Part shown: positions 542 to 64,000 of the stretch, in pieces
Layout of the letters: the number at the start of each line of letters is the position of its first letter
Numbering within the stretch: the first letter of the stretch is position 1
Source: Yuukianura sp. NJ FZ-2021
Lineage: Eukaryota
Direction of reading: 5' to 3'
NCBI GenBank assembly: GCA_046563655.1
Contig: CM102287.1
Location: 3,658,001 to 3,722,000, forward strand
DNA length: 64,000 nucleotides
Made by a program: the position numbers and the translations under genes
The notes under the pieces: generated by a model
Told to the model about the DNA's origin: nothing
Seen by the model: only the letters and a program-made list of their open reading frames with translations
Databases searched by the model: none

Positions 542-865
542 AAGTGTGTTAACGCTTTATTTCATACCTAGTTCTCATGGATTCAAGTGAATTTTTGGGA
601 AGGACATGTAGGATTATGGTAGGTTTATATAGCGCATGCTTTTGACAGTTTTTCGGTAGGCAACGGACCGATTCTGTATCTGGGGTAGCCAAGCGTATGG
701 GAATAAACGGGGGTGATTTAGTGATACAAATTGGCAAATTGGATTTAACAAAAGAAAATACAATTCACCATATGCAACTTTCCAGTTATGTTGTTATGTC
801 TAATTTATGTATTCCTGAATTGTATATGTAGTCCACAGACAAAAATCGTAAAAACTTGGCTGTCC

Positions 866-2100
866 TTTTAGTCTTCTGGAGACGCACGTCTACGACGTGC
901 TGAAGAAGACTATTGATACGACTTTGTCTGTCTGTCTGTCTGTCCGTTCGCTTTTTTAGTATCTTTTGCGCTGAAACATTAGCCCTATCGCAGTCGGGGG
1001 GTCATGTATGGCTCAAGTGTTTTCTCTACCTCTACATTGCACTCAAAGTGTTAAGTTAACAACGTCAAAGTATGCGGCTGCTTCGCGTTGCAGTTTCTTA
1101 AGTCCTCAAAATTTCTGTGTTAGGTCTGCATTGCACTCAAAATATATTTAAACAACGAAGTTTTGATCTTCTCATTTTCTGATATTATGTTTAGGTACGT
1201 TGTTAAATTAAGACTAATTAGAGGGTAGAAAATCCGGCTTAAATTCGTAACATGCAAACAGTGATTGGCAGGGTTCAAATTTGCTTTTGCAACAATTTTG
1301 ATTATAAACAAGGGATATTCGAGTTTATAACTTATGCACTTAATTTAACACATGGTGCATTTATTTGAACCGATTTTGATTTTATAGAAGCTATATTCGA
1401 TCCCTACTCCACAACGTTCAATTTTGTGCATGTTGAACACTTATTGCACGAATGTAAAATTGTACAGTTATTTTGACGCTGGGTAATGGGCGTTGTTATT
1501 TCAAAATTTGTGCACACTGGAGAACAATAATTGAATGGCTTCGCGGAAAAAGGGGCAAACTGCAAATTGCAATTTGAGTTTCTACGGGCAACGAGTTGCG
1601 TATTGGCTTTTCTGCTGAAATCGGGCAGAAAAAACCGCTAAATCGGTCTGAAAAACCGTTTTTTCGCATGATTTTGTTTGTTTGAAAGCTGAAACAGAAA
1701 ACGTCAAAACGACGATTTTCAGTTTGCCCCTTTTTCCGCGAAGCCATTCAATTGTTCCGCGAAGCCATTCAATTGTCCACCAAATAATTTTGCTAACAGT
1801 TTGATGCAGAAATGTTGTGAACCAAAATAATTTTCAGGAGAGTGAAAACGGTTCAGGGCTAAAGCTGAACAACATTCTTATGCAAACGGTTTTTTCACAT
1901 TTTGGTGCAATTGTGCACAAAAAGGCCCCACATCTGCACTGAAAGTTATGAGCGACGTTTCGTTGCATAAATCCCGTGAAAACGGTTTCTTGACGTTTTT
2001 CTTCAACGGGTTTGTGGACAGCTGGTCTAAAAGTCGTATCAATTGCCAACTCCCTCCAGAAGACCTATGCTCAACCCTTGAGCATTGCCCTACCTTGTTT
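866..2100 (+). mobile_element. HINE/DINE-1-like non-autonomous Helentron, family A, copy 1
   Basis: 5' end TTTTAGTCTTCTGGAGACGCACGTCTACGACGTGCTGAAGAAGACTA (hairpin), then a (GTCT)n microsatellite. Subterminal IRs 871-881/2054-2064 and 912-924/2031-2043. 3' stem-loop ATGCTCAA-CCC-TTGAGCAT at 2067-2085. Ends in a T-run with no TSD. Confidence 0.9.
1533..1749. mobile_element. 217-bp MITE with AATT TSD (Sola1-like), nested in HINE copy 1
   Basis: TIR GAATGGCTTCGCGGAAAAAGGGGCAAACTG and its reverse complement. AATT at 1529-1532 and 1750-1753. A second copy lies at 18707-18924. Confidence 0.85.
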
Positions 2101-3074
2101 GTATTAAGCCCAAGACACTCAAGGTTCAAAAATGCAAACAGCTACTGCGATGTTGCTGCTTGCAGTTGTGTGCGGATTGGAATCACACCAACCCACACAG
2201 AAAACTTCTAGACCGTGCAGCACCTTTGGAGTTTCCACCCTTCAGCTCCACACAAAGTGAGAGATTGCATGTGTGTGTTGGACTTTGCGACTGCAATTTT
2301 TCTCTCGAATACAAGCGGGAGATATTTTCAAATGAAAGCCTCAATAAACTAAACAAAAACTTGACAACGGTTCAAGTTTGCGACGTCGCATATCAATTTA
2401 AGAAATCCAACGTACTTGTGCGCTCGATTTCTAACACAGCTTCGTTCTTTGAACGTTCTTTGATGTCGTTATTCCGAACATCCAAAAGAAAATTGTTATA
2501 CATTACCTTCCTGCATTGAACAACTTGAACCAATAACTCAAGAAGTTGAAGATTCTCTCCTGATCTTCCTCCCTCCTTTGTAATGGAAGTGGTACACTTT
2601 CTTCGGTGAAGATTTGAGAAATTGATATAGTTTTAAATTATTGGGACGTTACAAATGTAAAAATTTTTTTATTAATGTTAATTATGAAACCTCAAAATTT
2701 GCAAATGTAGAACACGAATATTGTTTTTGGCAATGGTTTCCTTATAATATGAGGTTCGCCGCCAGTAGGATTTCATGAGGCTATAGGAGAATCGCAACCC
2801 TTTTGTCTCAACTTTTTTGTACATCAATCAATTTGTAAGAGAAAACTGGTTGAAATTAATTAAATATGCATTAGATATTGAGAAAATAGTCGAATAGTCG
2901 TAGAAATGAGTCGAAAACCAAAAAACCCGAAAAATTCCGAAAAACCCAAAATTCAGATATTTCGGTTTTGGAGTAAGATTTCATGAACCTGACCAATGGG
3001 ACTTATTACCACACCTCTTGTGAAGCTCGATCTCGAATTTGGGGACATAGGAGTTAGCTAAAAAGATGGGCGGG

Positions 3075-22369: not shown

Positions 22370-25339
22370 ATGGATCGTGCTAAGAAGGCAAGAGATCTAC
22401 AGAGACTTGGCGTGACGGACCTAATCGCGAATTTAGAGTCCGAATTGAAAAGGGAATCGGTTTCCGAAAATGACGTCATCGCGGCTGTCACGATGCTGGA
22501 TGATGCAGTGGAGAGATTGGCGGATCTTCACGAACAGGTGCTGACTTTTCTTTTGGATGATGAATCCTCAACCCCAGAGACGTTGCACACGGAGTGGCGT
22601 GTGGACAGTGACTTCAAGAGAAGAGCAACACTAGTGAAGATTGAAGCACAGAAAATTCTCAATCCACCTACCAAGTCACAGAATCGTTCGTCTAATGATG
22701 ATGACGCATCGTCTACCAGCCGACACAGGAAGATGAAGCTACCGAAGACAGAGTTACGAAAGTACTCTGGAGAACTAGTCGACTGGATTGGATGGTGGTC
22801 TCAATTCAAGAAGATTGACGACGATGACGAAATACACGTTGTGGACAAGTTCGGTTATCTCGTTCAATGTATGGTGCGAGGATCCAAAGCAGAGGAAGTA
22901 GTCAAGCGGTACCCTGAGTCGGCCGAGAACTACCCAAAGGCTTTGGAGGCACTGAAAGAGAGGTTCGGGAATCCGAAACTGCTGAAACAAGTGTATGTTC
23001 GAGAACTAATGAAGTTGATGTGGGACACTTGGGCGAAGGAGAAGAAGCCATTGGACATCCTTTACGGGAAATTAGAAGCTTCTCTCCAGTCACTACAGTC
23101 CCTTGGTGTAAGTGTTGACAACATGGTTGAACTGTTGTTTCCTATGGTGGAATCCTGCTTGCCGGAGGACATTTTGGTTGCTTGGCAACGAAGTTCTGAC
23201 TTTGGGCGTGATGGGTCCAAGGAGAACCCACCAAAGAGTGAACTTGATTTCCTACTGGCATTTCTGAAGAGAGAAGCGGGCAACAAGGAACAACGGGCAC
23301 TTACTCAGATTGGTTTTGGACCCGGTCCTAGCCAAAAGAAGAAAAGCCACAGCAGTCCCAGAGAAGAAGATGATGTGCCCACGGCGGCTGGACTGTTCAG
23401 TGGACAATTTGATAACAAAGAGAGAAGCCAGTGCTTGTTCTGTGAGAAGCAGCATCCATCCAAAGAGTGCTTTAAGGCACAGAAGATGACATTAGAAGAG
23501 AGAAAGGAGGTCATCAAAAAGAAGGGTGTTTGTTTTTCGTGTTTAAAAGGCGGACATAGGGCTAATAAGTGTCGTAGTTCTCCTCAGTGCCTTGTCTGCG
23601 GTAAGAAGCATTTGGTTCTACTCTGCCCCCAGATCTCATCGTCAACCAGAGGTTCCAGTGATGGAAAAGACAAAGATGATGGGAAGAAAAATCAGACGGT
23701 ACTCTCAAGTCTCAACTGTACCAGCGAAGTCGTACTCCAGACGCTGATCGTGCAGTTGGAGAATCCATTTTCAGTTCCTCTCCTTCTCCTGGACCAGCAT
23801 CAGATCTGCGGAGCAATTCCGAGAATTACGCCTGGCCCATGGATGAAGATGCTCAGAGACAGAGGAATTGTGTTGAACGACTTTGACCCGAAGAATCCCG
23901 TCGAAATTGAAGTTTTGTTGGGTGCAGACACCATTGGACAATTTCTGACTGGGAAGATCTTTCGTCTTAAGAACGGGCTGACGGCAACAGAGACAAGGTT
24001 GGGTTGGACGGTCATGGGTGCTACAGGAAGACAGAGCAATTCTGAAGACGTAGCCATGACTGTGGTTTCCATGACTATCGCTAGCTCGACAGTCGCCCAG
24101 CTTTGGTCTTTGGATGTCCTTGGAATTCGTGACCCCGTAGAGAAGAAGACGCAAGAAGACCGGGAGAGAGAGGCTATTGAAAATTTCCAGAAGACAGTTA
24201 CTACAGATCCGGAAGGAAGATACACTGTCTCTCTACCTTGGATCAATGGCTCTCAATCCCTTCCTACAAATCGTGCAGTGGCTCAGAAGCGGTTGGAAAA
24301 CACCACCAAGAAGTTAGTGTCTCTGAATCGGTTCTCAGATTATGACAAAGTGTTTCAAGAATGGGAATCCGAGGGCATAATTTCAGTGGTCGAGGACTTA
24401 GGTGACAGTGAGAGTGTTCCTTGTCATTATGTTCCTCATCGCGCCGTCTTCAAGGCTAGTTTAACTACTCCAGTGCGTCCAGTGTTCGACGCTTCGTGCA
24501 AGGTCGGGAGGAATCCGTCACTTAATGAGTGCTTGGAGAAAGGACCAAATCTGCTTGAACTTCTTCCCTCAATTTTACTTCGTTTCCGAATGGGGAAGAT
24601 TGGAGTCATAGCAGATATCCGTAAGGCCTTTCTTATGATCAATGTGAAAGAAAGTGATCGTGATTTCCTAAGATTTCTATGGTGGGAGGACAAAGAACGA
24701 CAAAAAGTGAAAGTGTTTCGGCACAACCGAGTCGTTTTTGGGATGAACTGTAGTCCATTCCTTCTAGGTGCAGTTGTCTTCCATCATTTGAACCAGCATC
24801 GGTGTGAAAATCCCGAGGTCGTAAGTTTGATTGAAAGGTCACTTTATGTGGACAATGTAGCTCTTACAGTGGACAGTGATTCCGAGTATGAAAAAGTGAA
24901 ATCAGTTTCTTCAGACATTTTTTCACAGGCTACAATGGACCTTAGACAGTGGGAGAGATCCGGTGTTTGGAGTGATCAAGTCATTACCAGTGTTCTAGGG
25001 ATGAAGTGGGATAAGAAGGCGGACACGATCTTTTGTGATGTTGTTCCTACCATTATTCCATTAAAAGTGACTAAAAGAGTTATTTTATCTCAGTTGCAGA
25101 AACTCTTTGACCCCCTAGGACTGTGGACTCCAGTTGTCACTCTACCGAAAGTACTTCTTCAGCAAGCATGGAACGAGAACAAGACTTGGGATGAAGAAGT
25201 ATCTACTGAAATGAAGACAGAATTCCTCAGTTGGTCAAAGGAATTAGCTGAAGTCAGTGACAAAGTTCAACTACCTCGAGACTGTACCAGTGGAACAACC
25301 AGAGACAACCGGAAAGATCCAAATTCATGTGTTTGGTGA
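22370..25339 (+). CDS. BEL/Pao Gag-(partial protease)-reverse transcriptase polyprotein, part 1
   Basis: Gag with three Cys/His knuckles (CLFCEKQHPSKEC, CFSCLKGGHRANKC, CLVCGKKHLVLLC). RT motifs RPVFDAS, ADIRKAF, FGMNCSPF, YVDN. Confidence 0.9.
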   Translation: MDRAKKARDLQRLGVTDLIANLESELKRESVSENDVIAAVTMLDDAVERLADLHEQVLTFLLDDESSTPETLHTEWRVDSDFKRRATLVKIEAQKILNPPTKSQNRSSNDDDASSTSRHRKMKLPKTELRKYSGELVDWIGWWSQFKKIDDDDEIHVVDKFGYLVQCMVRGSKAEEVVKRYPESAENYPKALEALKERFGNPKLLKQVYVRELMKLMWDTWAKEKKPLDILYGKLEASLQSLQSLGVSVDNMVELLFPMVESCLPEDILVAWQRSSDFGRDGSKENPPKSELDFLLAFLKREAGNKEQRALTQIGFGPGPSQKKKSHSSPREEDDVPTAAGLFSGQFDNKERSQCLFCEKQHPSKECFKAQKMTLEERKEVIKKKGVCFSCLKGGHRANKCRSSPQCLVCGKKHLVLLCPQISSSTRGSSDGKDKDDGKKNQTVLSSLNCTSEVVLQTLIVQLENPFSVPLLLLDQHQICGAIPRITPGPWMKMLRDRGIVLNDFDPKNPVEIEVLLGADTIGQFLTGKIFRLKNGLTATETRLGWTVMGATGRQSNSEDVAMTVVSMTIASSTVAQLWSLDVLGIRDPVEKKTQEDREREAIENFQKTVTTDPEGRYTVSLPWINGSQSLPTNRAVAQKRLENTTKKLVSLNRFSDYDKVFQEWESEGIISVVEDLGDSESVPCHYVPHRAVFKASLTTPVRPVFDASCKVGRNPSLNECLEKGPNLLELLPSILLRFRMGKIGVIADIRKAFLMINVKESDRDFLRFLWWEDKERQKVKVFRHNRVVFGMNCSPFLLGAVVFHHLNQHRCENPEVVSLIERSLYVDNVALTVDSDSEYEKVKSVSSDIFSQATMDLRQWERSGVWSDQVITSVLGMKWDKKADTIFCDVVPTIIPLKVTKRVILSQLQKLFDPLGLWTPVVTLPKVLLQQAWNENKTWDEEVSTEMKTEFLSWSKELAEVSDKVQLPRDCTSGTTRDNRKDPNSCVW

Positions 25340-27485
25340 CGCAAGTAAGAAGGCTTACGCAACAGTGGTGTTTCTTCGCATTGAAACTCAAGACGGTGTC
25401 AAAATCCGATTTATTCAAGCGAAATCAAGAGTAGCACCACTGAAACCAACCACAATCCCCAGATTGGAGCTTCTTTCGTGTTGCATTTCAGCAAGACTGG
25501 TGACAGCTATCAAGTCAGCATTAGACCTCGAAGACGACGTTCCGACTTTCCTTTGGACGGATTCCAGCACGGCCTTGTCGTGGATTCGCCGGAGTGACGA
25601 GTGGGGGACGTTCGTGGGGAATAGGGTCAAAGAGATCCTGAAGCTGACAAAAGTCGAAGACTGGAACCACATTCCGGGTTTGGATAATCCGGCAGATCTG
25701 CCATCCAGGGGGACTTCTCCAACCAGGTTCGTGTTGTCGCGATGGTGGGAGGGCCCTGATTGGCTGAAATTAGAAAAGGAGATGTGGCCCAGATCAGAAT
25801 CATCGGTGGACGAGGATGCAGTCAATCAGGAGCGTAAGAAGAGTATCACGACACTCACGAACATTACTACTCCTGCGCCTGTCTCGTCACCATGGTATGT
25901 GACTAAGAATTCGTTTCATCAGACTCTTCGTGTTTTTGCTTATGTCATCCGGTTTGTGAGTCTTTTGAAGAAGGAGTCGACGGAGAAGTCCGAGATTCCT
26001 ACCATCACAGAACTGGAGGAGGCAGAACGAAGATTGATCATGATCATTCAAGAGGAATCATTTCCCATGGACAAAAGTGTAATTCAGGGTTTGAGAGTGC
26101 TAGTGGACTCAGATGGACTACTAAAAGTGAAAACCAAAGTGACTAATCGAGTTGACACAGACACTTTTAGGAAACCAATTTTACTTCCACATTCTCATCC
26201 CATTGTCAATCTCATCATCCGAGACACTCACATCTTCAACGCACACGGAGGAGCACAGCTGATGATGGCCAAGTTAAGAGAAAAGTACTGGATCATCCAG
26301 GGAAGAAGGGCCATCAAGAAAGTCATAACCAAGTGCATCGTGTGTAAGAGGTTTGATGGTAAGACTGTTGAAGTTGTGGCTAGTGCTCTACCGGAACCGA
26401 GGGTAAGGGAGGCCAGTGCCTTTGAAGTGACTGGAGTGGATCTGGCAGGCCCCTTAACTCTAAAGAACAGGAAGAAAGCATACATTGTCATGTTTACTTG
26501 TGCAGTGTTTCGGTGTGTTCATCTGGAGGTGACCGAATCATTGTCTACTGATGACTTTCTTCTCTCATTTATCAGATTCTGCAAAAGGAAACAACGGCCA
26601 TCGATCGTCTACTCTGACAACGGAACGAACTTCGTCGGAGCAGTGAATCTGTTTAAGGAGATCGACTGGGACCTTGTTCAAGAGAAGACGCAGAAACAGA
26701 AAATCAAATGGATCTTCAATCCACCTTCTGCACCGTGGTGGGGCGGATGGTGGGAGAGGCTCATCAAGAGCACCAAGGATCTTCTCCGTAGGATGCTTGG
26801 ATTCCAGAAGCTGACTTACGTTCAATTGGAAACTGTCTTGTGCGAAGTGGAAGCTGCGGTGAACCACAGACCATTGACGTACGTCACAGAAGATCAAGAC
26901 GACTTTGTACCATTGACCCCGGCCATGTTCATCCATAATCTTCCGAATTGTGAAGTGCCGGAGGCTCAACTGATCATACCGAAGACCCTTGGACAAGAGA
27001 AGAGATGGCTGGACCAATTACTGCAGGAGGTGAAACAGCGTTTTCGTTCTGAGTACTTGGGTCAGTTAGTCCAACGGGGCAAGGAACAGAAGACCAGGAC
27101 TTTCAGCATTGGAGAAATCGTGCTCATCGAGGTGGACAACAAGAAGCGGATTTTCTGGCCAATGGGGAGGATTCTGGAGCTGCTTCCTGGGAAAGATGGA
27201 GAAATTCGAGTTGCCAAATTGAAGACGAAGAATGGTGAGCTGCTGCGTCCCATTCAACGACTAGTGCCATTGGAACTGAGACATGACGAGATACCGGAGC
27301 CACCAGTCAAGACAGCCGAGAGCTCCAACGTCATCGACTACGAATCTGCAGTGGAGAGTGACAGCGACACTTATTGCGAGTGCCTGCCGTGTCAGGACGA
27401 AGACGAGGTCAACACTGCAGAACCAGAACAGAAGACTACGAGAAGCGGACGGACCATTCGGAAACCGATTCGCTACGGACAGTGA
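25257..27485 (+). CDS. BEL/Pao RNase H-integrase, part 2 (frameshifted relative to part 1 at about 25290-25320)
   Basis: RNase H motifs HVFGDASKKAY, TIPRLEL, NPADLPSRG. Integrase HHCC zinc finger and DDE motifs (GVDLAGP, YSDNGTNF, WERL). Confidence 0.9.
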   Translation: MTKFNYLETVPVEQPETTGKIQIHVFGDASKKAYATVVFLRIETQDGVKIRFIQAKSRVAPLKPTTIPRLELLSCCISARLVTAIKSALDLEDDVPTFLWTDSSTALSWIRRSDEWGTFVGNRVKEILKLTKVEDWNHIPGLDNPADLPSRGTSPTRFVLSRWWEGPDWLKLEKEMWPRSESSVDEDAVNQERKKSITTLTNITTPAPVSSPWYVTKNSFHQTLRVFAYVIRFVSLLKKESTEKSEIPTITELEEAERRLIMIIQEESFPMDKSVIQGLRVLVDSDGLLKVKTKVTNRVDTDTFRKPILLPHSHPIVNLIIRDTHIFNAHGGAQLMMAKLREKYWIIQGRRAIKKVITKCIVCKRFDGKTVEVVASALPEPRVREASAFEVTGVDLAGPLTLKNRKKAYIVMFTCAVFRCVHLEVTESLSTDDFLLSFIRFCKRKQRPSIVYSDNGTNFVGAVNLFKEIDWDLVQEKTQKQKIKWIFNPPSAPWWGGWWERLIKSTKDLLRRMLGFQKLTYVQLETVLCEVEAAVNHRPLTYVTEDQDDFVPLTPAMFIHNLPNCEVPEAQLIIPKTLGQEKRWLDQLLQEVKQRFRSEYLGQLVQRGKEQKTRTFSIGEIVLIEVDNKKRIFWPMGRILELLPGKDGEIRVAKLKTKNGELLRPIQRLVPLELRHDEIPEPPVKTAESSNVIDYESAVESDSDTYCECLPCQDEDEVNTAEPEQKTTRSGRTIRKPIRYGQ

Positions 27486-29337: not shown

Positions 29338-29931
29338 TTAATTAAATTTAAATCTAGGAATGTTTGCGGAGATTACACAAAAAGATATAGGGCTTACCTC
29401 GCAACATATTAAAACAACGGGATGAGAGTACACATAGCTTGTGGTCCCACACACGCCGTTGTTAGCGCCACAGGGATCCACCTGACATTGTTTCCCGGCT
29501 TTACCGTAAATCGGAGCAAAATATTCTCCGTTTACACATAAATCAAATTGCTCGCCTTTAGATGTTGGGCCACAACTCCAATAATCATCCGAAGATTTTA
29601 GTGAGGGGCAAAATTTATCTCCTCCCACAAGAACAGTTTCACCTTCATAAAATGTTGTGGGCTCCTCACTACATAATATTTGAAAATCCATTGTTGCGGC
29701 ATGATTCTTCTGAAATCCACGCACGTAGCTGTTATTTGGGCACATCATAAAGGCTTCAGGGTAACGAAACGTTTCGGAATAGGTTCCGTGTATCCACAAT
29801 TTCCTTCCATAAAAGTTTGATAAGTACGTGTCCAGCACCGCGTTTGGACTGAGATTTTCCTGTATGTTTTTGTTGAGGATTTGCGAAAGTGTATCCTTGG
29901 CACCGACAACAGTTAGAGTACTTTTGCGACG
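29338..29931 (-). CDS. Cys-rich family member B, terminal coding exon (about 197 aa); 5' exon not identified
   Basis: The frame extends upstream of the ORF-track start to a TTTAG acceptor (29932-29934): RRKSTLTVVGAKDT... Motifs MMCPNNSYVRGF..QILCS and VCG..LICCE. Confidence 0.65.
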   Translation of the reverse strand, partial: RRKSTLTVVGAKDTLSQILNKNIQENLSPNAVLDTYLSNFYGRKLWIHGTYSETFRYPEAFMMCPNNSYVRGFQKNHAATMDFQILCSEEPTTFYEGETVLVGGDKFCPSLKSSDDYWSCGPTSKGEQFDLCVNGEYFAPIYGKAGKQCQVDPCGANNGVCGTTSYVYSHPVVLICCEVSPISFCVISANIPRFKFN

Positions 29932-31000
29932 CTAAATAATTCAAAATTTAAGCCTTTTAGGTTTTGGCAGCGGATTGCATAATACAAACCATTAAACATT
30001 GGTTATGCTAAGTTACGTAATATAACAAGGAGAGTTCACTAAAACCTTAAATTTATCATAATTAAAATTGGAAAAAGTATTCACCTTCAGAAGATGATAA
30101 AGGTGTAAGAGCTCGTGCTTACCCCCTTTTGCGAAATCCCTCGCCTGAAGGCTTGCCTGTATCAAATTAAACGTAAATTATGTCGACAGATGGCTCTCCT
30201 CTTATTCCCCTGAGGATCGAAATTCGTTGGCTTTATGCGCAAACTTGAATTCCAAATGAATTCGAAGTTTACCTGGCCAAATTTGAATTCAAATTCGAAT
30301 TTCAGTTTCCCCGTGTTTTACCGTCATAGTTCAAGATTTTAACAGTAGAAGCTTGTAAATTTTACTGGTAAACACGGAAGTGCAGTGCTCAAGGGTTGAG
30401 CACACGTCTTCTGGAGGTAATTGGCAATTGATATGGCTTTTACACCTGCTGTCCGCAAACCCGTTGAAGAAAAACATTAAGAAACCGTTTTCACCAGATG
30501 TATGCAACGTAACGTAGCTCATAATTTTAAGTGCATATGTGCGGCCTTTTTATGTACAATTCCACCGAAGTGTTAAAACGGTTTGCGTCAAAGTGTTGCC
30601 CAACTTGAGCATTGAACAAATCAAAATAATTTTGATGCACAATGTTTTTACATCGAACTGTTCTCAAATATGCACTAAGTTAGAATGTCCTTAAATCTGT
30701 TCATGTAAGTGTACGATAATTCGGATGTAATCACCGTTCTAAAAGATGTAAGTTCAGTTGTTCTCGATCATGCACAAATTGTTATTCTATACCACGTCTA
30801 TAACGTCCACTACCCAGTGTCAAAACAACGAGGTATAGATGTTCTTCATGCACAAATTTTGAACGCTAAAAGGCAGGGGCGAATATTGTTTCTTTAAAAT
30901 CACGATCGGTACAAATGGTTAGCATGTGTTAAACTATAGTTCATTTTAGTCTTCTGGAGACGCACGTCTACGACGTGCTGAAGAAGACTATTGATACGAC

Positions 31001-31046
<46 letters not shown>

Positions 31047-32061
31047 CGTTCGCTTTTTTAGTATCTTTTGCGCTGAAACATTAGCCCTATCGCAGTCGGG
31101 GGGTCATGTATGGCTCAAGTGTTTTCTCTACCTCTACATTGCACTCAAAGTGTTAAGTTAACAACGTCAAAGTATGCGGCTGCTTCGCGTTGCAGTTTCT
31201 TAAGTCCTCAAAATTTCTGTGTTAGGTCTGCATTGCACTCAAAATATATTTAAACAACGAAGTTTTGATCTTCTCATTTTCTGATATTATGTTTACGTAC
31301 GTTGTTAAATTAAGACTAATTAGAGGGTAGAAAATCCGGCTTAAATTCGTAACATGCAAACAGTGATTGGCAGGGTTCAAATTTGCTTTTGCAACAAATT
31401 TTCGTAATTTTGATTATAAACAAGGGATATTCGAGTTTATAACTTATGCACTTAATTTAACACATGGCGCATTTATTTGAACCGATTTTGATTTTATAGA
31501 AGCTATATTCGATCCCTACTCCACAACGTTCAATTTTGTGCATGTTGAACACTTATTGCTGCTTTTGCACTGAAACATAAGCCCCATCGCAGTCGGGGGG
31601 TTATGTTTGGCTCAAGTATTTTCATTAGTTCTACATTGCACTCAAAGTCTTACATTAACAACGCACAAAGTGTGCCTCTGCATCGCGTTACTGTTTCTTA
31701 AGTCCTCAAAATTTTTGCGTTAGGTCTGCATTATACTCAAAATATTTATTAACAACGAAGTTTTGATCTGGTCATTTTCTGGCAGTTAGTTTAATTACGT
31801 TGTTAAATTAAGCCAAATTAGAGGGTAGAAATTCCGGCTTAAATTCGTAATACGTAAACAGTGCCTTGTAGGGTTCAAAGTTCCTTTCTCAACAATTTTG
31901 ATTATAAACAAGGGATATTCGAGTTTATAACTTATGCACTTAATTTAACACATGTTGCATTTATTTGAACCGATTTTGATTTTATAGAAGCTATATTCGA
32001 TCCCTACTCCACAACGTTCAATTTTGTGCATTGTGAACACTTATTACACAAATGTAAAATT

Positions 32062-34867
32062 GGGCTGCTGGGACGTAAAACCACGACTTTCGTGTTTACA
32101 CATTTTTTAAACTTTTTTTTCGCAACAACAGCGAAAACCGCGCAAAAAACGAACACGCGCCAAACTTATTTAGAAATAGAATTTAGAAATTGAAATTTCA
32201 TCCTACCTCCTTTGTCTTTTGCTCTAAAGCTTTCTCAAATTCGTATTTACACTTTTCAATTAATTATTATCGCCTAATCCCTAGTTCTAATGAAGTTACA
32301 GTTAGCGTAGAGTTAGTCAAAATGAAAGTGCTAACAACTGCTGATCTGGAAAGAACGAACGAGAAGAAAAGGAGACATCAGCATCCAGATCAAACTAAAG
32401 ATGAACGACGGAAGCAAAACAAGAACGCTGGTAACCCCTACAGATCCAGAAACGGGAATTTTGTCCCTGGAATTCAGCCACCAACTCAAGTACGCTATTA
32501 CGAGATTCAATATTATGTAACTTTTAAATGTTTCAGATAAAGATTTTCATATTTGAATAGGCTAAAACGTGCGGACCTTGCACAAAACAAGGCTGCTTCC
32601 TCCCATTGGCCATCAAAATGGAAGTCTTCACAGCATACTGGAAGGAAATGGACACTTATGAAAAAAAGGCTGCCTTCTTGATGAAATGTATTGAGATCCG
32701 GAATCCTAGGACAAGATCAATTCCGAATCAACCCAGCCGGATACAAAATGTATACAAATACACGATACTGCATCAAGGAATGCCACTGGAAGTTTGCAAG
32801 AAAGGATTCCTGGACATACTTCAAATTAAGGAGAATGCCATCCGTACTGTCATTAAGAAGATGAGAGCCGGACATATGACGATTTGTGATGGGCGTGGCA
32901 AACACCAAAAGTCAACTATACCCACTGTTACAAAGAATGCTGTAATCTCGCACATTCAGAACTACCCAGCGATTGAAAGTCACTATCGACGGGTGAATGG
33001 GAACCCTCAACGTCTATACTTGGATCCAGCACTGAACATTTCCATAATATACAATGATTATATCAAGGCATGTCGGGACAACAATGTGCAGCATCTCGAG
33101 GTGGAAGAGTCGTATTTCCGTAAAGTCTTCTATACGTTCAAATTGAGTTTCGGAAACCCAAAGCAAGATACATGTGATCTTTGCGACAAATACTCCATTG
33201 CGGTCGCCTCCAATCCACTGCTGGCAGCAGAGCGGGACCTGCACCATACCCAAGGTAATCAACAGTTACCTTAACAGTGTTGCTTTTACGCCTGGATTTG
33301 AGCTTTACATTGTTGCAAGTTTCATTGTATTAGATCCTGACAACGATGCCATTTTAACTGAGTTAGATCTTCGTAATGTTGCTAGGTTAGGCTCACTGCA
33401 TTAGATCCTTATACATTGTTGCCACCTTTACACTAAATCTCCATACCCTTTTTCACCATTCAATTTCTTAACAGTGTTGCCATTATGCTTGCATCTGACC
33501 TTTACATTGTTGCCATTTTAAGTGCATTGGATACTCGCAATGTTGCCATCTCAACTGCATTAGATTAATACAATGTTGCCATGTTCTCATTTTGACCATG
33601 CAGTTTCTTAACAGTGTTGCCATTATGCTTGCATCTGACCTTTACATTGTTGCCATTTTAAGTGCATTGGATACTTATAATGTTGCCAGTTCAGTAACTC
33701 GACTTTCTTTTTTTAGCTGATGCAACGTATCACGCGTACAAGAACGACAAGTTACGATCCAAAGCTGACACTTCTTACGTCACAATCACTGTAGACCTGC
33801 AACAAGTAATCTTCACTCCTTGGCTAAGAAACAATTCCGCCTTCTACCTGCGGAAGATGAGCAATTACAACTTAGGTATTCATAATGCTGCTGATGATGC
33901 TTCTGTCATGACCTTGTGGAGCGAGACAACCGGGAAAAGGGGATCGAACGAAATAGCCAGCGCAATTTGGAATTACTTGACCTTGACTTACAACATTCTC
34001 CTTCCTGGGGAAATGCGAGAACTTGTAGTTTGGTCTGATCGTTGCATTGGGCAAAATAATAATTTCATAGTCCTGAGTATGCTGACATTCCTGGTGCAAA
34101 TTGGGCTCTTCACTTCTGTAAACCATAAACTCTTCGTTACAGGTCATTCCTACAACGACTGTGACAGAGATTTTGGCAACATCGAGTCACGACTAAGGGT
34201 TAACCCACTTATCGTTCCCAGCGACATTGAAATCGCAATAAGAAACGCTAGATGCGAAAATCCATTTTCGTGTGACTGGATTCCCTCCTCCAAAATCAAG
34301 GATTTCAAAGAGGCCAGCACTTCTTAGATACGACCACCAACTCTAAAAGTAACGGAAAGTCTTTGGTTTTTCTATGATGCAAACTTCCGGCAGCAACTAC
34401 TGTCTAGAGAAGATCACAGTGTCGTAAGTTAATTTTGCGATAAAAACATATCCATATTGAAATAATAATTTGCAATTTTAGGGAGGAGTTTGGACAAGAC
34501 ATCATCTTGTCCTCAAATCAAGAGTCCGAATCGGGAACTTCAATCCAAACACCCTAAGCCGTGCTTACAACGATGATCTGCCATTGTCACATGAGAAAGT
34601 GAAGGATTTAGAGAAACTTCTTCCGTTCCTTAAACCGCAACAGGCCTCATTTTATGAGTATATAATCTTAGAAAATTTAGACGCATTCTAAATTACTCAC
34701 TGCTTGCTTACTTAAAATCGTCCGGTAAATTTAAATAAACGTTGTTCTATCAGAAAACAGACGCATGCGCAACCTGGTATAACCGAGAACCACGGACGTC
34801 ATTTTTAAATATTGCCCGGGTGATTTTGAGTAAACACGAAACTCGTGGTTTTACGTCCCAGGCGGAT
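32062..34867 (+). mobile_element. Sola1-type DNA transposon (2806 bp)
   Basis: AATT TSD at 32058-32061 and 34868-34871; empty site in HINE copy 1 at about 1452-1470. TIR core CTGGGACGTAAAACCACGA(C/G)TTTCGTGTTTAC. Confidence 0.85.
32322..34691 (+). pseudogene. Four-exon Sola1-type DDE/D transposase with one in-frame TAG (34325-34327)
   Basis: Exons 32322-32489, 32561-33254, 33717-34423 and 34482-34691 splice GT-AG in frame. Motifs ESHYRR, CDLC, DLQQV, KRGSNEIAS, WSDRCIGQN, GHSYNDCDRDFG and C-terminal LPLSHEKVKDLEKLL..FY. AATAAA at 34734-34739. Confidence 0.85.
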
Positions 34868-35673
34868 AATTGTACAGTTATTTTGACGCTGGGTAATGGG
34901 CGTTGTTATTTCAAAATTTGTGCATACTGGAGAACAATAATTGTTCCGCGAAGCCATTCAATTGTCCACCAAATAATTTTGCTAACAGTTTGATGCAGAA
35001 ATGTTGTGAACCAAAATAATTTTCAGGAGAGTGAAAACGGTTCAGGGCTAAAGCTGAACAACATTCTTATGCAAACGGTTTTTTCACATTTTGGTGCAAT
35101 TGTGCACAAAAAGGCCCCACATCTGCACTGAAAGTTATGAGCGACGTTTCGCTGCATAAATCCCGTGAAAACGGTTTCTTGACGTTTTTCTTCAACGGGT
35201 TTGTGGACAGCTGGTCTAAAAGTCGTATCAATTGCCAACTCCCTCCAGAAGACCTATGCTCAACCCTTGAGCATTGCCCTACCTTGTTTTTAATGCGCAG
35301 TTGTTGATTGTAATTTTTCAAGCGTCTCCCATAGAAACTGCTTAGGTTGAAGTGATTAGTAGAGGTTGAAGTGAAGTGAACAACACGGCTATTTCTTTTC
35401 TAAAACAAAATGTCTAATGTCAACAGCCTAGGTCGAAGGTGACAGGTTACACAAGGGCACCCTGGCACTTTTTTCATTATCAATAGACGCCACAAGGCTG
35501 ACAATCGTTTGCTTTCATGCTGAAGTTTCGTGTTCCGGCATTTAGAAAATTAATTAATTCAAAAAAGAATTCTGTAAAGGACAGTAACTCTTTTAGGCTA
35601 AGTTTTCCTTACGTCAACCTAACACGTTTCTAGGGGTGACGCTTGAGAAATTACAATGAACAACTGCACAGTA

Positions 35674-37627
35674 AAAACAAGGTAGGGCAATGCTCAAGGG
35701 TTGAGCATAGGTCTTCTGGAGGGAGTTGACAATTTATAAGACTTTTAGATCGGCCGGCCGCAAAACCGTGTAACAATAAGGTGAGAAACCGTTTTCATGG
35801 AATTGATGCACCGAACCATCGCTCAAAATTTTCAGTGCGGAGGTGAGGTTCTATTTTGTGTATGATTTACACCAGAATTGTGTTGGCAATTCTACCGTTC
35901 AATTGCACCAACATCATGTTCCTGTTTTGAGGCTCACAATACCTGCACTGAATTGATGTTGTTAATTTCTTGAGCAAGATACACACTGTATTTTAGATTG
36001 TTGGCATGGCAATACATCATACATAACAGCGTTAATTTAACTGCATAATAATGTTGTTCAAATTGGGCTCAGCAGATTTCACTCTGCTCAAAATTATTTT
36101 GATGCACAATCGTTCTCAAGCATGCACAAAACTTTCAGTTGTGTGCATCATGCACAAAACTGACGTGGGGGGAGGGGTGTCGAATGTCGATTCCTAAAAG
36201 TCAAAATTGGTTCATGTAAATGCACAATTCAACGTTTATGTATCCCTGTTGGTCATAAGTGTGCAACATGCCAGAGGTGGTAGCCTGCAACTATTTTCCC
36301 CAACCTGCCCCGCCTGCACTGCAGGAATTTTTAGCCTGCACGCCTGCAGCCTGCAAAATTGTCGAAAATCGGCAGCCTGCACGCCTGCACCTGCAAGGCT
36401 CTTTGGCAGGCCAGCCTGCAGCCTGCGCAGGCTGCCTGCAGTCAGCCTGCAATTTTTTTATGCGAACTGTAATCTGCGAAAATTTCAATATACACTTATA
36501 ACTACTGCGTAGATTCGTTTGCGTATAATGGCAATTACTCAATCACCCTCAATTATCTGTCGGTTGTCCTTTCCAAACACGTAGGGAGAAAAATTTCTAG
36601 TAATAAATTGTTTTACGACACTGCTACCTTACTTTTGGTTTGTTTAACTTTTAAAAATTCTTGATCCTTGCACATAAAAAAATCCGCAAAAGTTATACTG
36701 TCAAATCTTGCGTTGTCTACACGTGCAAGTGTAACGTCAACTTTACTTAACAATATTTCTTCTGCCTCCGGATTCATTATTTATTGTTTAAAAGCCCTAT
36801 AGTGCAACTAATGTACAGCAAAAAGTTTGCATAGTTCCATTGATTTTAATTCTTCAACATTCCAAAGTAATTTTTCTATTCGTTTCTATCTTTTCTTGAA
36901 GTTTCTGAGAATAAAACGCTCAAAAAATCACAACCCGCAGCCTGCAGGCCAAATGCAGGCGCCTGCAGAGCATTGCTGGCTGAACCCGCCCGCCTGCAAC
37001 ATTTCCAAATAAAAACCTGCACGCCTGCAGCCTGCAAAAATCCACCGCAGGTTGAGCCCGCCTGCACGGGCTGCAGGTTGGCCTGCAACCTGCGCAGGTT
37101 TACCTGCAGGCTACCACCTCTGCAACATGCACAAAAATGAACGCTAGAGTGAGGGGTCGAATATGGCTTGTAAAACTCGAAGTTATAAAAATTTCTAGTA
37201 ACTGCAGCTTTGACCGCTGTCATGCACTATTCACATATTAAACATCTAAGCCAAATTTTCTACCCTCTAGTTAAGTCTTAATTTAGCAACGTAATTAAAC
37301 ATATTGCCAGAAAATGACCGGATCAAAACTTCGTTGTTTAAATATATTTTGAGTGTAATCGAAACCAAAATGTTTCCGGGAAACGACTGCACTTAGGGTG
37401 CATAAAGTGGTCGCCCATTTCCACGTTGTTAATATAACACTTTGAGTGCAATTAAGACTTATTGAAAACACTTGAGGCATACATAACCCCCCGGACAAAA
37501 TGGAGCTTATGTTTTAGCGCAAAAGATACTAAAAAAGCGAACGGACAGACAGACAGACAGACAGACAAAGTCGTATCAATAGTCTTCTTCAGCACGTCGT
37601 AGACGTGCGTCTCCAGAAGACTAAAAA
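35674..37627 (-). mobile_element. HINE family A, copy 7
   Basis: Both termini present. The 5' about 0.35 kb is nearly identical to copy 12. Confidence 0.9.
36272..37122. mobile_element. hAT-like non-autonomous element (851 bp)
   Basis: 18-bp TIR CAGAGGTGGTAGCCTGCA. 8-bp TSD CAACATGC at 36264-36271 and 37123-37130. Many subterminal GCCTGCA motifs. Confidence 0.9.
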
Positions 37628-37748
37628 TGTACTATAAGTGCATAAGTTATAGTGTCGCATATCGCTTGTTTAATACCAAAATTACAGAAACATCTTGTAA
37701 AGGCCAATTTGCAGTCTGTCAAGGCCTATACAGATGTTACAAATTTAA

Positions 37749-40638: not shown

Positions 40639-41217
40639 TTAGAAACTTACAGGTTCAGAAGAACAGCAGATCAAACCCTTGGTTGACCAACCCATTCCAA
40701 AGTGTTTTGCTATAATACCACAAGGAAAAGTATCGCTTTGGCATTCAACTGCACTATCCGCACCAGCAACACATTGAAATCCTCGATCTTGTAATACGTT
40801 GCTGAACAATTCCGAGTTACTGCAAGCATCTTTCGACTCTGGTACTTTGATTGCCGACACAAAATTTGTTTCACATATGATATATTTTGGAGAAGCTTGT
40901 GGAATGCATGGGACATTCCCGTCTTCCGGAAAACATACCCGTTGCACGCATTCATGGCGATCATTGTCGAGATATGTTACATCAATAGTGTGGACTTTTT
41001 TTGCACAGATAATGGATTGGCCATTGAAACCCTGTATGTAGTAATCTGATGGGCACATGGCGAAATAGAAACCAAAGTTTCCTTCTTCCGACATAAATAT
41101 TCCCGCGAAAGTTTTTCTTGACGTTTGGTGAAAATGAGTTTGAATACTCTTTATAACAACTTGTGATGCTGAGTTTTCACTTCTGTCAGCGGCTTCCATG
41201 GAGAGAACAGCAATGTT
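40639..41217 (-). CDS. Cys-rich family member C, terminal coding exon (about 192 aa); an upstream exon probably ends at ..ATGACAAAG|GTAA (about 41325)
   Basis: Acceptor TTTCTTTAG (41218-41220), then NIAVLSMEAA... Motifs AMCPSDYYIQGF..IICA and PCG..LICCSS. Confidence 0.65.
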   Translation of the reverse strand, partial: NIAVLSMEAADRSENSASQVVIKSIQTHFHQTSRKTFAGIFMSEEGNFGFYFAMCPSDYYIQGFNGQSIICAKKVHTIDVTYLDNDRHECVQRVCFPEDGNVPCIPQASPKYIICETNFVSAIKVPESKDACSNSELFSNVLQDRGFQCVAGADSAVECQSDTFPCGIIAKHFGMGWSTKGLICCSSEPVSF

Positions 41218-46160: not shown

Positions 46161-47058
46161 CTAACATATTTCTGATGTGATACTAGGACATACCTCAACA
46201 GACAGCACGCAGCAAATAACCCCAATCCCGTTCTCACCATCGTCTTGAAGTATTTCCAAAATACCACAAGCAAACTGATGTTCCAAGCATAACATTTCCC
46301 CCGGGGTCGTTGTCTTCGCGCAGGAATATTGTTCGTCCCTAAACCCGCGAATTCCTGCATTGGAGCACATATCCACCCCGAAAATCCTGCGAATTTTAAA
46401 ATTCTTTTAGGAAAATAAATTTATATGGCGAAATGACAAATTTATAGTCTTTACTTATCACTCTTGACGCAATCAAAGCTTCGAGTTAAATAACTGCTCT
46501 CGGCTTCAGGATTGACGGAGTATTGCGCAGGTATTGCTGAATTGGGTTCATTTACTTTTGGACAAGTGTTAAGACGCACTTGGCACCACGTGCCATTGAT
46601 GTTGAAATTATCTTCAACAATAGTACGCAGTCTGGAGCATACGAGAAAGTTGTTTCCGTACCCTCTAAGTTGGTATCCATCTTGGCAGAGAAAGGGAATG
46701 AAACCCGATTTATCGTAAACTAATTCTAGCCCGTCATATTTGTTTTGTACAATGTCATTTAAGGATGTCGTTCGGATGATGTTGTACAACTCTGGTAGTG
46801 AAGACTTAAAATTTACATACTCAGAAAATGGACAGAATGTGCTGATCGTACTTTTCGTGGAGATCATCACGTGTACCTACGTTTTGACAAAACAGAGTGG
46901 TGTGTTTATTGATTCACATTAAGTGTACGATCTGACGTACTAGAAGGATTTGTGTTACAGTATACCTCGTCCCAAGCAGACTCCAGGGTGTCGGCATGTA
47001 TTATTCGGATGAATATATCGGCGACACTGATGAACAGGAGCATATGGTACACACCCAT
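46161..47058 (-). CDS. Cys-rich family member D, three exons (47058-46966, 46876-46455, 46386-46161), about 246 aa, signal-peptide-like N-terminus
   Basis: Leader MGVYHMLLFISVADIFIRIIHA. GT-AG introns give an open frame. Motifs FLCQDGYQLRGY..LVCS and ACG..VICCV. Confidence 0.7.
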
Positions 47059-59943: not shown

Positions 59944-61706
59944 ATTATAATATTATTGATAGTAATATTTATAATATTATTATTAATGCAAACATCATTA
60001 ATAGTAATATTTATACTATTACTATTAATATTGAAGGTGAGCGTTAGGCATTCGCAGTGGACCCTAGTATTGGACGAAAGAAAAATAACAACTGATACAT
60101 ATTTAATACGAGAACCTTATTCGGCGACTCCCTGAAAAGAATTGGAAGCATTCTTGTTCTACGCTTAAATCCAAAACAGAAATGTTGATTTTCCACTTCA
60201 AAATTGTAAACAAAAACAAAAGTTACAGCATGTTCTTGTTACCATGGCGTTAATTCTTGACGGACATTCGCGAAATTCCGGATTCCTAAATGTAAATCCA
60301 ACCTAACTTTCGATAGGTTAGGGGGTCCAATCGGGTTATTTTGTTATTAATTTCTAACCTCCATGACCTTTCCAACGATATCTCAATCGGTAGGATTGGT
60401 CACGGATTTCCGTAGTTTTTCGCATTAAATAGGAACCCCTGATGCTTTTTAAATTGGAGAAGGCGGTACTTTGGACACCATTATCTCTGGCCCTGGCTGG
60501 GGGTCCACCGTTTTAGTCTTCTGGAGACGCACGTCTACGACGTGCTGAAGAAGACTATTGATACGACTTTGTCTGTCTGTCTGTCCGTCTGTCACGTTTT
60601 TTAGGACTCATTGTACTGAAACATTAGCCCCATCGCAGTCGGGGGGTTATCTATAGCTCAAGTTTTTTCATTACCTCTACATTGCACTCAAACTCGTACA
60701 TTAACAACGTAGAAGCAGGCGGCTACTTTACGTACCCGCAGTATCGTGGCTCCGCAAAACAGTTTTAGTTTCGATTGCACTCAAAATATTTATAAACAAC
60801 GGAGTTTTGATCTGGTCATTTTCTGGCAGTATGTTTAATTACGTTGTTAAATTAACACCGATCAGAGGGTAGAAAATCCGGCTCAAATGTTTAGCATGTG
60901 AATAGTGCATAACAGGGGTCAAAGTTGCAGTTACTAGAAATTTTTATAATTTTAATTTTCACAAGCGATATACGACCCCTCGAGCCAGCGTTCATTTTTG
61001 TGCATGACTCATACTTATGACCAACAGAGATACAAACGTTGAATTGTGCATTTACATGAACCAATTTTGATTTAAAAGAAAGTATATCCGACATCCTCCT
61101 CATCGTTCAATTTTGTGCATGATGCACAAAGCTAAATTTCGATATCATTATTTTGACGTTGGGTTGTGGACGTTGTTATTTCTATAGTAGCAATTTCTGA
61201 ATACTTAAGACCAAGTGTTTCAAAATAATTTTGAAGAGAATTAAAATTGTTTAGAGCACAATTTGTACAACATTTTGATGGAAGCGGTTTTTAATCATTT
61301 TTATTGTGTTGCACAATTCGTTCAAATTTTATGCCACAGCAATGGCATGACAACATTAACTTTACTTTACGCTTAAGTTGTTTATCAGTTGTACCTCGAA
61401 AAAAATTGCATAAAGTTTTTCTGACTGCAATTCATGACTGTTTTTTACAACGTCTTTTACATTTTGTTTCTTATCGCTTCAACTGTTAAAAGTATAAATT
61501 TCATACACTGACAACAATTCTTTCATTATATTCATTCAAGTGCTTAACGTATAGTTTAACTCATAGTTTACAGTTCTATTCTAAGTAGTATATAATTTAA
61601 ATCTTCAACTCTATACAGCTTCGTCGGGTAAGAATATGTATTTTAATCATTTATCTTATTGCAAAATATATTCACTGACGTTTCATTGTATTATACAGGT
61701 ATAATT

Positions 61707-64000
61707 ATGTCTAGTCGTGATCAACGGGCGAAAGCCAGAAACCGCAGGCAAGCTGTAAGGCTCAGAGAATCTAGCAATCAAGGCGAGCGGAGAATGGACA
61801 ACACGGCACGTCGCTTAGCTCGTGAAAATGACGACTACAGAGAAATGGAACAAGCACGGAATACTGCAGCGCATCGTCAACTACGTGAAAATGACGACTA
61901 CAGAGAAATGGAACAAGCACGGGATACTGCAGCGCATCGTCAACTACGTGAAAATGACGACTACAGAGAAATGGAACAAGCACGGGATACTGCAGCGCAT
62001 CGTCAACTACGTGAAAATGATGACTACAGAGAAATGGAACAAGCACGGGATACTGCAGCGCATCGTCAACTGCGTACTCAGGTTCATGATGAGCCCTGGG
62101 AGTCGGTGGTTGAGGTCTTCGAAGAAAAATGCAGGGAAGGCCCTTCACATATCTGTATCTCCTGTGGTGGACTTTGGTTCAAGAAATCTATCAAGCAGCT
62201 GCGGCGATCCGACTGTACTCGATACGATGACAACTTTCTGAACGCTGTTTTCTCTACGCAACTGGAAGGAAACTTTTGTAATACTTGTCATGCTGCAGTT
62301 AGATCTGGTCGAGATTCACGCTTGGCGCTTACCAATGGACTCAACTTTCCGGTCATCCCTTCAGAGGTTTCGTCTTTGACGCGTCTGGAAGCTCGTTTAG
62401 TTTCACCATACCATGTTTTCCAGGCGATTTGGGCTGTACAAGGACAGCATGGTACAGTTTAACTGTTCATAAATAAGCTCAAAATTTGATTAGTTTTGCT
62501 AATAACAATATTTGCAGGTCAATTGAAGACGAAAGGACGGATTGTGAATGTTCCAGTTTCCGTGACAAATATTGTTCAAAGTCTGCCCCGCCTCCCTTCA
62601 GACGATTCAGTCCTGCATCTCCGGCTGGCCCGTCAGATGCATGTGGAGAAGAACTACACGTCTGGAAATATACGTCCACAAAAAGTAGTTGACGCTGCTA
62701 AAGTTTTATGTCAATCACCTTTGTACTCTCAACATGGGATATCAGTTTCGAATTCCTGGATCGCGGATTCTCAAGAATTGAATTCCTTTGACTCAGCCAT
62801 GGAGAGTCAGCTTGAAAACTCTCATATAATTGCGAACGAAGAAAGTCCGGACGCTGAAACCGAAGACTCGACAGCGGGTGAGACGATGCTAACAGATGCC
62901 TCGGGGCTTCGGATGGCCCCCGCTGAGGGTAATCGGCCTGTTTCTGTTCTTCTGGATGACGACGCTATATTTCTAGCCTTTCCTCAAATATTCGGCGGAG
63001 AAAAGCTCAATCCAATGTATGCCGGCAAAAAAATCTCAAAAGCTGACATGTTCATGTCGTTTGCAAGGAACAAAGACCGACGTGCTGCCGAGTCAGTGGA
63101 TTTCCTCTTGTACATGGCGAAGACTCTAGAAATTGCACGAATATCTAGCAATCGCACCATTCACTTGAGGAAACGAAAAATAAATGGTGAGCATATCATT
63201 CCAACTGCGGGACAAGTCTTGCACCAGACTTACGTTGATGGCCTCATCAAGGACGACAACGCTTATAAAGTCTTGTCCGGAATACGGAACGCAGGAGTAC
63301 ACTGGAAGAATGAAGGCAACAAAGTTCGAGCGATGATACGTACGTTTGGGATTGCCACATTGTTTGTCACGATTAGTGCTGCAGAGTTGAAGTGGAACGA
63401 GCTGTTGGTGTTATTGAAGAAAGTTCTGGACGGCATCGACATTTCTGAGCAGGAAGCCCAAGAATTGTCCACTTCTGAGAAAGCGTTGTTGATTCAGCGT
63501 GATCCAATCACATGCGCGCGGTACTTTGACCACCGTTACTCCGCTCTGAAATCTACTTACAGATCTCGAAATGGGCCTTTTGGTAATCGTGAAATCCGAC
63601 ACTTCTACGAAAGAGTGGAGTTCCAGCACCGAGGAAGCCCCCATGTGCATGCAATGTTTTGGCTCTCAGACCCACCAATTTTCAATCCAGAGAATGAATC
63701 GCATGACGAAGTGACTAGTTTCATTGACAGTATGATAACATGCCGTACAGACTACCCTCCGGAGGATCCAATCACTGGTCTACTAACTCTCCAGACTCAT
63801 CGCCATACACATACTTGCTACAAGCGAACACACAAGGGAGTTAAATGTCGTTTTGGAATACCATTCTTCCCAATGGATCAAACTCGCATCCTTTTACCAC
63901 TGGACAACCCGGCAGACTACAAGGAACTCAAGCTACGGCATAAATTGATTCGTGACTTTTTGGAAGCTCAAATGCCGGACGCGGGAATGTCATTTACACA
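61707..64000 (+). CDS. Helentron Rep(/helicase) protein, exons 61707-62451 and 62518->64000 (open to window end)
   Basis: Cys cluster CISC..CNTC. After a 66-nt GT-AG intron: GQLKTKGRIVNVPV..LPR, LAFPQIFGG, TLFVTISAAELKW, RDPITCARYF, the HUH motif VEFQHRGSPHVH (63615-63650), and QTHRHTHTCYK..CRFGIP. No stop in exon 2 by manual translation. Confidence 0.93.
61821..62072 (+). repeat. 63-bp coding tandem repeat x4 (RENDDYREMEQARDTAAHRQL)
   Basis: Units start at 61821, 61884, 61947 and 62010 and are nearly identical. Confidence 0.95.

Follow-up and report, generated by a model that had tools for sequence, protein, structure and literature searches.

The locus examined here raises the question of how two HINEs came to lie as mirror images at the same position in both TIRs of a single MITE. 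It is found in a 64,000-nucleotide stretch of the Yuukianura sp. contig CM102287.1, hereafter the window. A preliminary description of this DNA proposed either strong sequence- and orientation-specific targeting by the Helentron Rep or the copying of one insertion to the other arm by intra-palindrome conversion. We believe that a simpler account is very probably correct: two HINEs inserted independently, steered by a moderate target preference, in the course of ordinary nested transposition.

Architecture of the nested locus

A TA-flanked MITE of 410 bp lies within an older HINE, and one HINE is found inside the T-run of each TIR (read directly from the sequence; Table 1). From the outside inward, both sides present the TA, a 7-bp stub, a short T-run and a HINE 5′ end, and the HINE 3′ ends face one another over a MITE interior of 381 bp, which itself ends in inverted repeats. 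Intact copies of the TIR read TA-(TAGTTCA or CTGTTCA)-T7..10-A[AC]TGTGCAGTTG. Because the order is the same in these copies, the stubs and the inner arms represent one family TIR that has been split at its T-run. All coordinates and the structure of the mirrored HINEs 7 bp inside each TIR, as first described, were reproduced; the MITE, put at about 400 bp, has an empty length of 410 bp by hand count. Excising the MITE in silico restores the interior of the older minus-strand HINE with a single TA, and since the host flanks rejoin in this way, the TA duplication of the MITE is demonstrated. The left outer stub and the TA also match uninterrupted copies of the MITE.

Table 1. Positions in the window of the features of the nested locus and of two related elements.
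Feature	Position	Strand	Remarks
Older diverged host HINE, 3′ part	30370..30934	-	BLAST 73-80% against other HINEs; 3′ hairpin near 30370-30416
Left TA target duplication of the MITE	30935..30936	.	Host HINE rejoins with a single TA
Left TIR, outer 7-bp stub TAGTTCA	30937..30943	+	Agrees with the termini of intact copies
HINE copy 6 with flanking T4 and T5	30944..35291	+	T4 at 30944-47; terminal G of the HINE at 35286; T5 at 35287-91; inferred target T7 after TTCA
Two HINE interior units of ~498 bp in tandem, in copy 6	31065..32045	+	TRF 87%; tile painting
Sola-like DNA transposon inside copy 6	32058..34871	+	Inverted ends; 4-5-bp direct repeat
MITE interior with inner TIR parts	35292..35672	.	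TIR parts about 35292-35323 and 35641-35672
HINE copy 7 with flanking T5 and T5	35673..37627	-	A5 on the plus strand at 35673-77 and 37623-27; inferred target T8 after TACA
hAT-like MITE of 851 bp inside copy 7	36264..37130 (element 36272-37122)	.	8-bp target duplication
Right TIR, outer 7-bp stub	37628..37634	-	TGTACTA on plus, TAGTACA on minus
Right TA target duplication of the MITE	37635..37636	.	Flanks rejoin to host HINE with one TA
Host HINE, continued	37637..37748	-	74.6% against HINE interior 31341-31454
HINE nearest in sequence to copy 6; insertion site unrelated	863..2103	+	99.7% identical
Autonomous Helentron of 10.4 kb, start	60511..64000, continues beyond the window	+	Ends as in copies 6 and 7; Helitron_like_N, PIF1

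The MITE has both the TA target duplication and the TIRs of a Tc1/mariner-type element (the accessible portion of PMC10741241 gives the TA rule). Its imperfect TIRs of ~45 bp and the internally deleted copies of many lengths are further likenesses to this type, from which it differs in that an intact transposase was not found: a search for one in the MITE family returned deleted copies only. A remnant of 186 aa in the copy at C2:5936288 has no Pfam hit. In the Atlas, its top three matches are unnamed, later matches have DDE_3 on 18-25% of members and the IS630-type rows lie below 0.9, a likeness to DDE_3/IS630 proteins at the level of features only.

Both HINEs carry younger insertions. The Sola-like element in copy 6 has a broken transposase (ORFs 32561-33274 and 33698-34327; Pfam DUF7869, E 6e-11), and public contigs hold its empty joint, skipping 2810 bases; the empty joint of the hAT-like MITE is likewise present in public contigs. 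Beside the length of the target duplication, the superfamily labels (Sola-like, hAT-like) lean partly on features that we presume to be typical of these groups. The duplication lengths used for the Sola label and the 8-bp hAT label follow the accessible portion of PMC10741241. By tile painting, the second ~498-bp unit of copy 6 is mostly of another subfamily type; HINEs are mosaic in this sense, and recombination between copies therefore occurs.

Three steps are demonstrated at the locus. A Tc1/IS630-type MITE entered a TA within the older HINE; HINEs of two subfamilies separately entered the T7 and T8 runs of its TIRs, a step demonstrated by sequence relations; and the Sola-like element then inserted into copy 6 and the hAT-like MITE into copy 7.

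This nesting also bears on whether the arrangement could be a misassembly, with one repeat folded onto the two sides, which we regard as extremely improbable. The public runs consist of contigs only, and three of the four share one sample, from which the assembly itself may derive. Among the listed contigs of X1, X2, X3 and X5, none crosses the whole stretch and none covers a HINE-MITE junction by 31 letters to either side, which counts in favour of a misassembly; run X5 holds a fraction of 0.12 of the words and leaves the unique flanks uncovered. However, the three nested layers restore exactly, target duplications included, which makes an assembly artefact unlikely; the two HINEs are different sequences; and in the X1 contigs, depth is equal and single-copy (42-56) for the Sola-like insert and the unique flanks. 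The correctness of the assembly is thus backed mainly by internal consistency.

Origins of the two HINEs

The sequence features of the family identify it as HINE, a non-autonomous Helentron (defining features in the accessible portions of PMC4067079 and of the HELIANO preprint, 10.1101/2024.02.08.579435). Copies 6 and 7 have perfect subterminal inverted repeats of 11 bp (GTCTTCTGGAG / CTCCAGAAGAC), a 3′ stem-loop with an 8-bp stem and a 3-nt loop, read from the sequence 12 nt before the terminal G, and a GTCY microsatellite. Insertion into T-rich targets without duplication is evident from empty paralogous sites and from the T flanks of 175 of the 176 paired copies. According to the available text of Thomas et al. 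(2014; PMC4067079), HINE/DINE-1 elements likewise have subterminal inverted repeats, a 3′ stem-loop, a microsatellite, T-rich insertion sites without target duplication, terminal Ts of their own and an autonomous Rep/helicase partner that shares their ends, whereas their subterminal repeats measure 12-15 bp. At the edge of the window lies a Helentron of 10.4 kb. Its first 53 nt match those of copies 6 and 7 without a difference, its last 40 nt with one, and its coding capacity includes Helitron_like_N (E 1e-20) and PIF1 domains. The 288-aa frame that follows the helicase has no Pfam hit, and by its motifs we take it to resemble an AP-type endonuclease. This Helentron is a candidate mobiliser of copies 6 and 7 and may have supplied the Rep/endonuclease.

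Comparison with other HINEs traces copies 6 and 7 to two different donors. Copy 6 differs from its closest relative, elsewhere in the window, at 2 of 577 and 1 of 348 columns (3 in 925), and copy 7 differs from an element on another contig (C1:5181038) at 13 of 495 and 8 of 582 (21 in 1077), that is, the segments are 97.4% and 98.6% identical. Compared with each other, copies 6 and 7 reach only 82.6% identity (15 gaps) and 79.8% (20 gaps), and are no closer than random HINE pairs (median identity 79.5%, 15132 pairs). In every 100-nt tile, the partner copy ranks between fifth and last among the relatives.

Is it nevertheless possible that one insertion was converted from arm to arm and that its interior was later replaced from another subfamily? 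The ends give this idea its appeal. As the preliminary description stated, the 5′ ends are shared apart from microsatellite length and the interiors differ, being ~80% alike: the first ~125 nt are identical except for the microsatellite, as are the last 44 nt, and identity drops ~50 nt past the microsatellite and ~45 nt before the 3′ end. The longer exact 5′ variant common to the two copies is a rare one, seen in just 7 of 175 copies, of which 4 lie in the window, and only 5 of the 175 share both end variants with them; mosaic HINEs, moreover, exist. However, the shorter ends are widespread, the first 53 nt being identical in 116 of 177 paired copies and the last 44 nt in 50 of 177. Relatives of copy 7 elsewhere carry the same ends natively, and those on other contigs carry the rare 5′ variant or differ from it by one base. 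Counting inward from either end, copies 6 and 7 each show the allele of their own subfamily as soon as a diagnostic site is reached. Conversion is recognized by near-identical inserts in both arms and by homogenised flanks. The inserts here are ~80% alike, and between the TIR arms 5 of 39 positions are different, within the 2-6 differences seen in intact copies, so there is no homogenised tract; three of the five differences lie within 5 nt of the T-runs (3 nt outside, 2 and 5 nt inside). The T registers are also unequal, 4|5 for copy 6 and 5|5 for copy 7, and two events would be required, the second covering the whole interior. With different subfamilies, a near-identical full-length relative elsewhere for each, arms that are not homogenised and a 5′ end common to most of the family, the proposal of intra-palindrome conversion is unsupported, and we consider arm-to-arm conversion with later replacement very improbable.

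The composite with extended inverted ends does exist as described, but once, and it gives no sign of having moved. In a genome search, the inner junction pattern matched only this locus; the outer pattern gave 9 matches, of which the other 7 have different flanks. We therefore rejected a mobile, foldback-like transposon, for which there is no second copy. HINE insertion 7 bp within both TIRs has probably immobilised the MITE.

Target choice by HINEs

An exact 24-nt 5′ pattern matches the 98.7-Mb assembly 258 times, and 255 of these matches were listed; diverged copies are missed, so these counts are lower bounds. DNA was taken from six larger blocks and from 160 regions of the 168 planned, and both ends were paired for 177 elements. 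For the motif, elements were left out if their T flanks were short (13), if they formed head-to-tail joints (4) or if the pairing was over-long (2), and the collapse of duplicates gave 141 events at 131 sites, or 129 without the two focal sites. The background comprised 4006 T-runs in 433 kb of DNA near HINEs, rather than the whole genome, with three satellite blocks excluded.

The logo built from these sites reads T strand, T≥5 and TC-N upstream. TT precedes and T follows the element on its own strand in 175 of 176 paired copies, and the A strand was used in none. The target run has at least five Ts at 122 of the 129 sites. Upstream of it, TTCA occurs at 12 of 129 sites (1.35 expected, p 1.5e-8), TACA at 5 (0.87 expected, p 0.002) and TC-N at 28 (4.9 expected). 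TTCA and TACA are the commonest upstream words, and the left arm of the MITE has TTCA and the right arm TACA; by motif weight, the two TIR runs rank top among the 5 T-runs of the MITE. Where two or more empty paralogues were available (21 distinct sites), the net gain is two Ts at 17 sites (hand count) and three or variable at the other 4. A gain of two implies targets of T7 for copy 6 and T8 for copy 7, which are within the T7-10 of the MITE family.

Around the targets, no 4-6-mer passed correction beyond the few bases beside the run. L1-like elements prefer junctions between a T-run and an A; this was not seen here, the next base being A at 46, C at 32 and G at 51 sites. A resemblance of targets to HINE ends, prompted by one satellite flank, also found no general support. 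The same base has been hit by unrelated HINEs (77-84% alike) in 6 other repeats. In a 510-bp satellite with seven T-runs, the TTCA run was used by three paired copies and one further 5′ end. In a 224-bp satellite, 5 separate events fell on one of five runs, which has a weight of only 0.73, and this low score indicates that the motif is incomplete. The Helentron Rep/endonuclease may read the upstream context.

According to the accessible text of PMC4067079, HINE/DINE-1 targets are TT or T-rich, whereas here they are mostly T≥5, the strand is fixed and the bases just upstream are biased toward TC-N; the motif found here thus exceeds the published rule in length. No extended Helentron target motif was found in the open main texts examined, and one may be in print; the empty sites shown in the supplement of PMC4067079 may bear on this.

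By these observations, the proposal of strong sequence- and orientation-specific targeting is correct in kind but too strong. The orientation is indeed absolute. However, it is simply the T-strand rule: the HINE 5′ end is always set toward the 5′ side of the T-run on the T strand. Once both arms of an inverted repeat have been hit, the two insertions can only lie as mirror images, so that orientation adds no information. The sequence preference is only moderate, about 6- to 9-fold for the two contexts found here, and a genome-wide count of HINE insertions per TIR gave 2 hit ends, both in this element, against 26 intact ends without a HINE (hand count). A TIR that serves as a dedicated HINE target was rejected on this count. 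The nearest MITE copy is 88.9% alike over 395 aligned columns.

Odds of the double hit

In the genome-wide pattern search for TIR copies, no TIR with a single HINE hit was found. However, 24 of the 26 intact ends lack any HINE 5′ end up to a distance of 32 kb, which accounts for a double hit without single ones; at genome-average rates, 0.06-0.12 single hits are expected in these 24 ends. The window itself is crowded: of the 255 listed 5′ ends it holds 10, a count that no other 64 kb exceeds, about 60 times the average and equalled only by one tandem-amplified array. Both TIR runs were hit because they follow the favourite words TTCA and TACA in the HINE-densest region of the genome, and the double hit would otherwise be a matter of chance.

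The size of this chance depends on the model. With genome-uniform insertion, a double hit in any of about 13 MITE copies has a probability of 6e-5 to 2e-4. In simulations of 11-15 insertions over the T-runs of the window, both TIR runs were hit in 2.3-4.3% of cases with 4-mer weights, in 0.5-0.9% with matrix weights and in less than 0.1% without the motif. Two of the seven TTCA/TACA runs in the window are filled, and two runs drawn from seven would be this pair in 1 of 21 cases. That the coincidence still stands at 0.5-4% within this window counts against independent insertions, as do the shared rare 5′ variant, the lack of singly hit TIRs and the site choices that the motif leaves unexplained, but for a pattern picked post hoc from a whole-genome scan it is unremarkable. 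Among 25 opposite-strand HINE neighbours within 15 kb, this is the only mirrored pair, a further point against independent insertions.

Could the second insertion have been coupled to the first, either because the MITE folds back as a stem-loop or cruciform or because the first insertion recruits the transposase to the partner arm? Both hit TIR ends (2 of 2) belong to one element, and HINE ends do cluster, with a density of 0.99 per kb over the first 50 bp from a 3′ junction compared with 0.15-0.2 at 600-1000 bp. At 200-400 bp, however, the neighbour rate is 0.28 per kb, which is not above the window average (23 ends in 64 kb). A partner arm (at least 10 bp, at most 185 bp away, a range shorter than the 390 bp of this MITE) was found at 1 of 128 targets compared with 146 of 3054 background runs, and because targets are not enriched in inverted repeats, hairpin targeting was rejected. 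Moreover, there is only this one case. We judge coupled targeting improbable.

Independent insertions at preferred targets have a parallel. According to the available text of PMC5932611 (Genome Res 2018), such insertions pile up and produce paired elements, some of them inverted. The likeness lies in pairs driven by site preference; the difference is that both elements occupy one target site in that work, on Drosophila, whereas the targets here are two MITE arms 390 bp apart, and in that text the words "Helitron" and "DINE" are absent. By analogy, this locus appears to work like a site-preference double insertion in which two symmetric targets replace one.

It is improbable, to the same degree as coupled targeting, that Helentrons have a second layer of targeting beyond TC-N-T5 in which the symmetric T-run is preferred once an arm is occupied or the repeat is folded. 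If this were true, rolling-circle elements would systematically lengthen TIRs in cut-and-paste elements, with foldback-like composites as the product. Under the preferred reading of two independent insertions, the locus is a neat case of nested transposition for which no new mechanism is required, and the HINE motif (T strand, T≥5, TC-N), together with the reuse of single sites, represents a testable substrate for the putative Helentron endonuclease.

Recurrent HINE insertion sites

Some satellite arrays hold more than one kind of HINE at one site (see table). Of the five T-runs present in the 224-bp satellite, one T5 with a low motif score is occupied by five separate HINE variants (seven copies), and the flank downstream of this T5 is similar to the 3′ terminus of a HINE when that terminus is reverse-complemented. 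The TTCA-T5 site of the 510-bp satellite is occupied at four positions by differing HINE subfamilies, and approximately 36 empty units adjoin the filled ones. Eight near-identical HINEs in the 182-bp satellite were amplified together with it; a ninth, distinct one (83-84% alike) lies in the site used by those eight.

HINEs also occur next to one another. A T6 directly after the microsatellite of another HINE is a recurrent insertion site. In the genome-wide set, another HINE end lies within 50 bp of 7 of the 141 HINE 3′ junctions; the neighbouring ends are mostly co-oriented, and the rate falls approximately five-fold by 600-1000 bp. Back-to-back 5′ ends were found at separations of 105 bp and 48 bp, and the flanks of the 105-bp pair are no genuine mirror sites.

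Other elements in the window and relatives of the MITE

The autonomous Helentron (window 60511-64000 and assembly region L042) also carries an RPA OB-fold frame on its opposite strand. At window 51034, 100 bp ahead of a HINE, a second element type has the 5′ subterminal repeat of a HINE followed by a different sequence. Window 22367-27485 has two overlapping long reading frames, of 990 and 745 aa, with the appearance of gag-pol from a putative BEL/Pao LTR retrotransposon. Short cysteine-rich frames, similar to each other in appearance, are dispersed among the window repeats and possibly represent a host gene family. Among the MITE relatives, one copy has an extra, inverted left end 4.4 kb away, and in another a gag-like frame plus a tandem array bring the length to 3.9 kb.

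Locations of features in the window and elsewhere in the assembly (L-numbers, assembly regions)
Feature	Location	Strand	Match
RPA OB-fold frame, autonomous Helentron	L042 8847-9383	minus	Pfam REPA_OB_2, E 1e-8
Cysteine-rich short frames	window 6971-7987, 11821-12417, 29338-29931, 40639-41217, 46451-46876		
HINE in T6 past another HINE's microsatellite	G000:C3:547213, C9:1321318, C1:5181038, C3:7081377, C4:8443248, C9:407728		
224-bp satellite	G000:C3:6823880-6897032 (L107-L109)		
510-bp satellite, filled sites	G000:C9:121503, 1290790, 1295914, 1321409 (L046-L051)		
182-bp satellite	G000:C3:4515531-4543220 (L056-L059)		
Back-to-back 5′ ends, 105 bp	G000:C5:2026946 and 2027051 (L168)		
Back-to-back 5′ ends, 48 bp	G000:C4:10316254 and 10316302 (L144)		
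MITE copy, extra left end	G000:C4:6271262-6275657 (L045)		
MITE copy, 3.9 kb	G000:C1:6529902-6533812 (L044)		

Mosaic interior of copy 6

In copy 6, the second of the two interior units (window 31562-32045) is 98-100% identical over 300 nt to the HINE copies at C3:45xxxxx, which represent another subfamily, and the type of its own subfamily is regained at the end of the unit. This unit is a mosaic, which would have been produced by template switching or unequal exchange.
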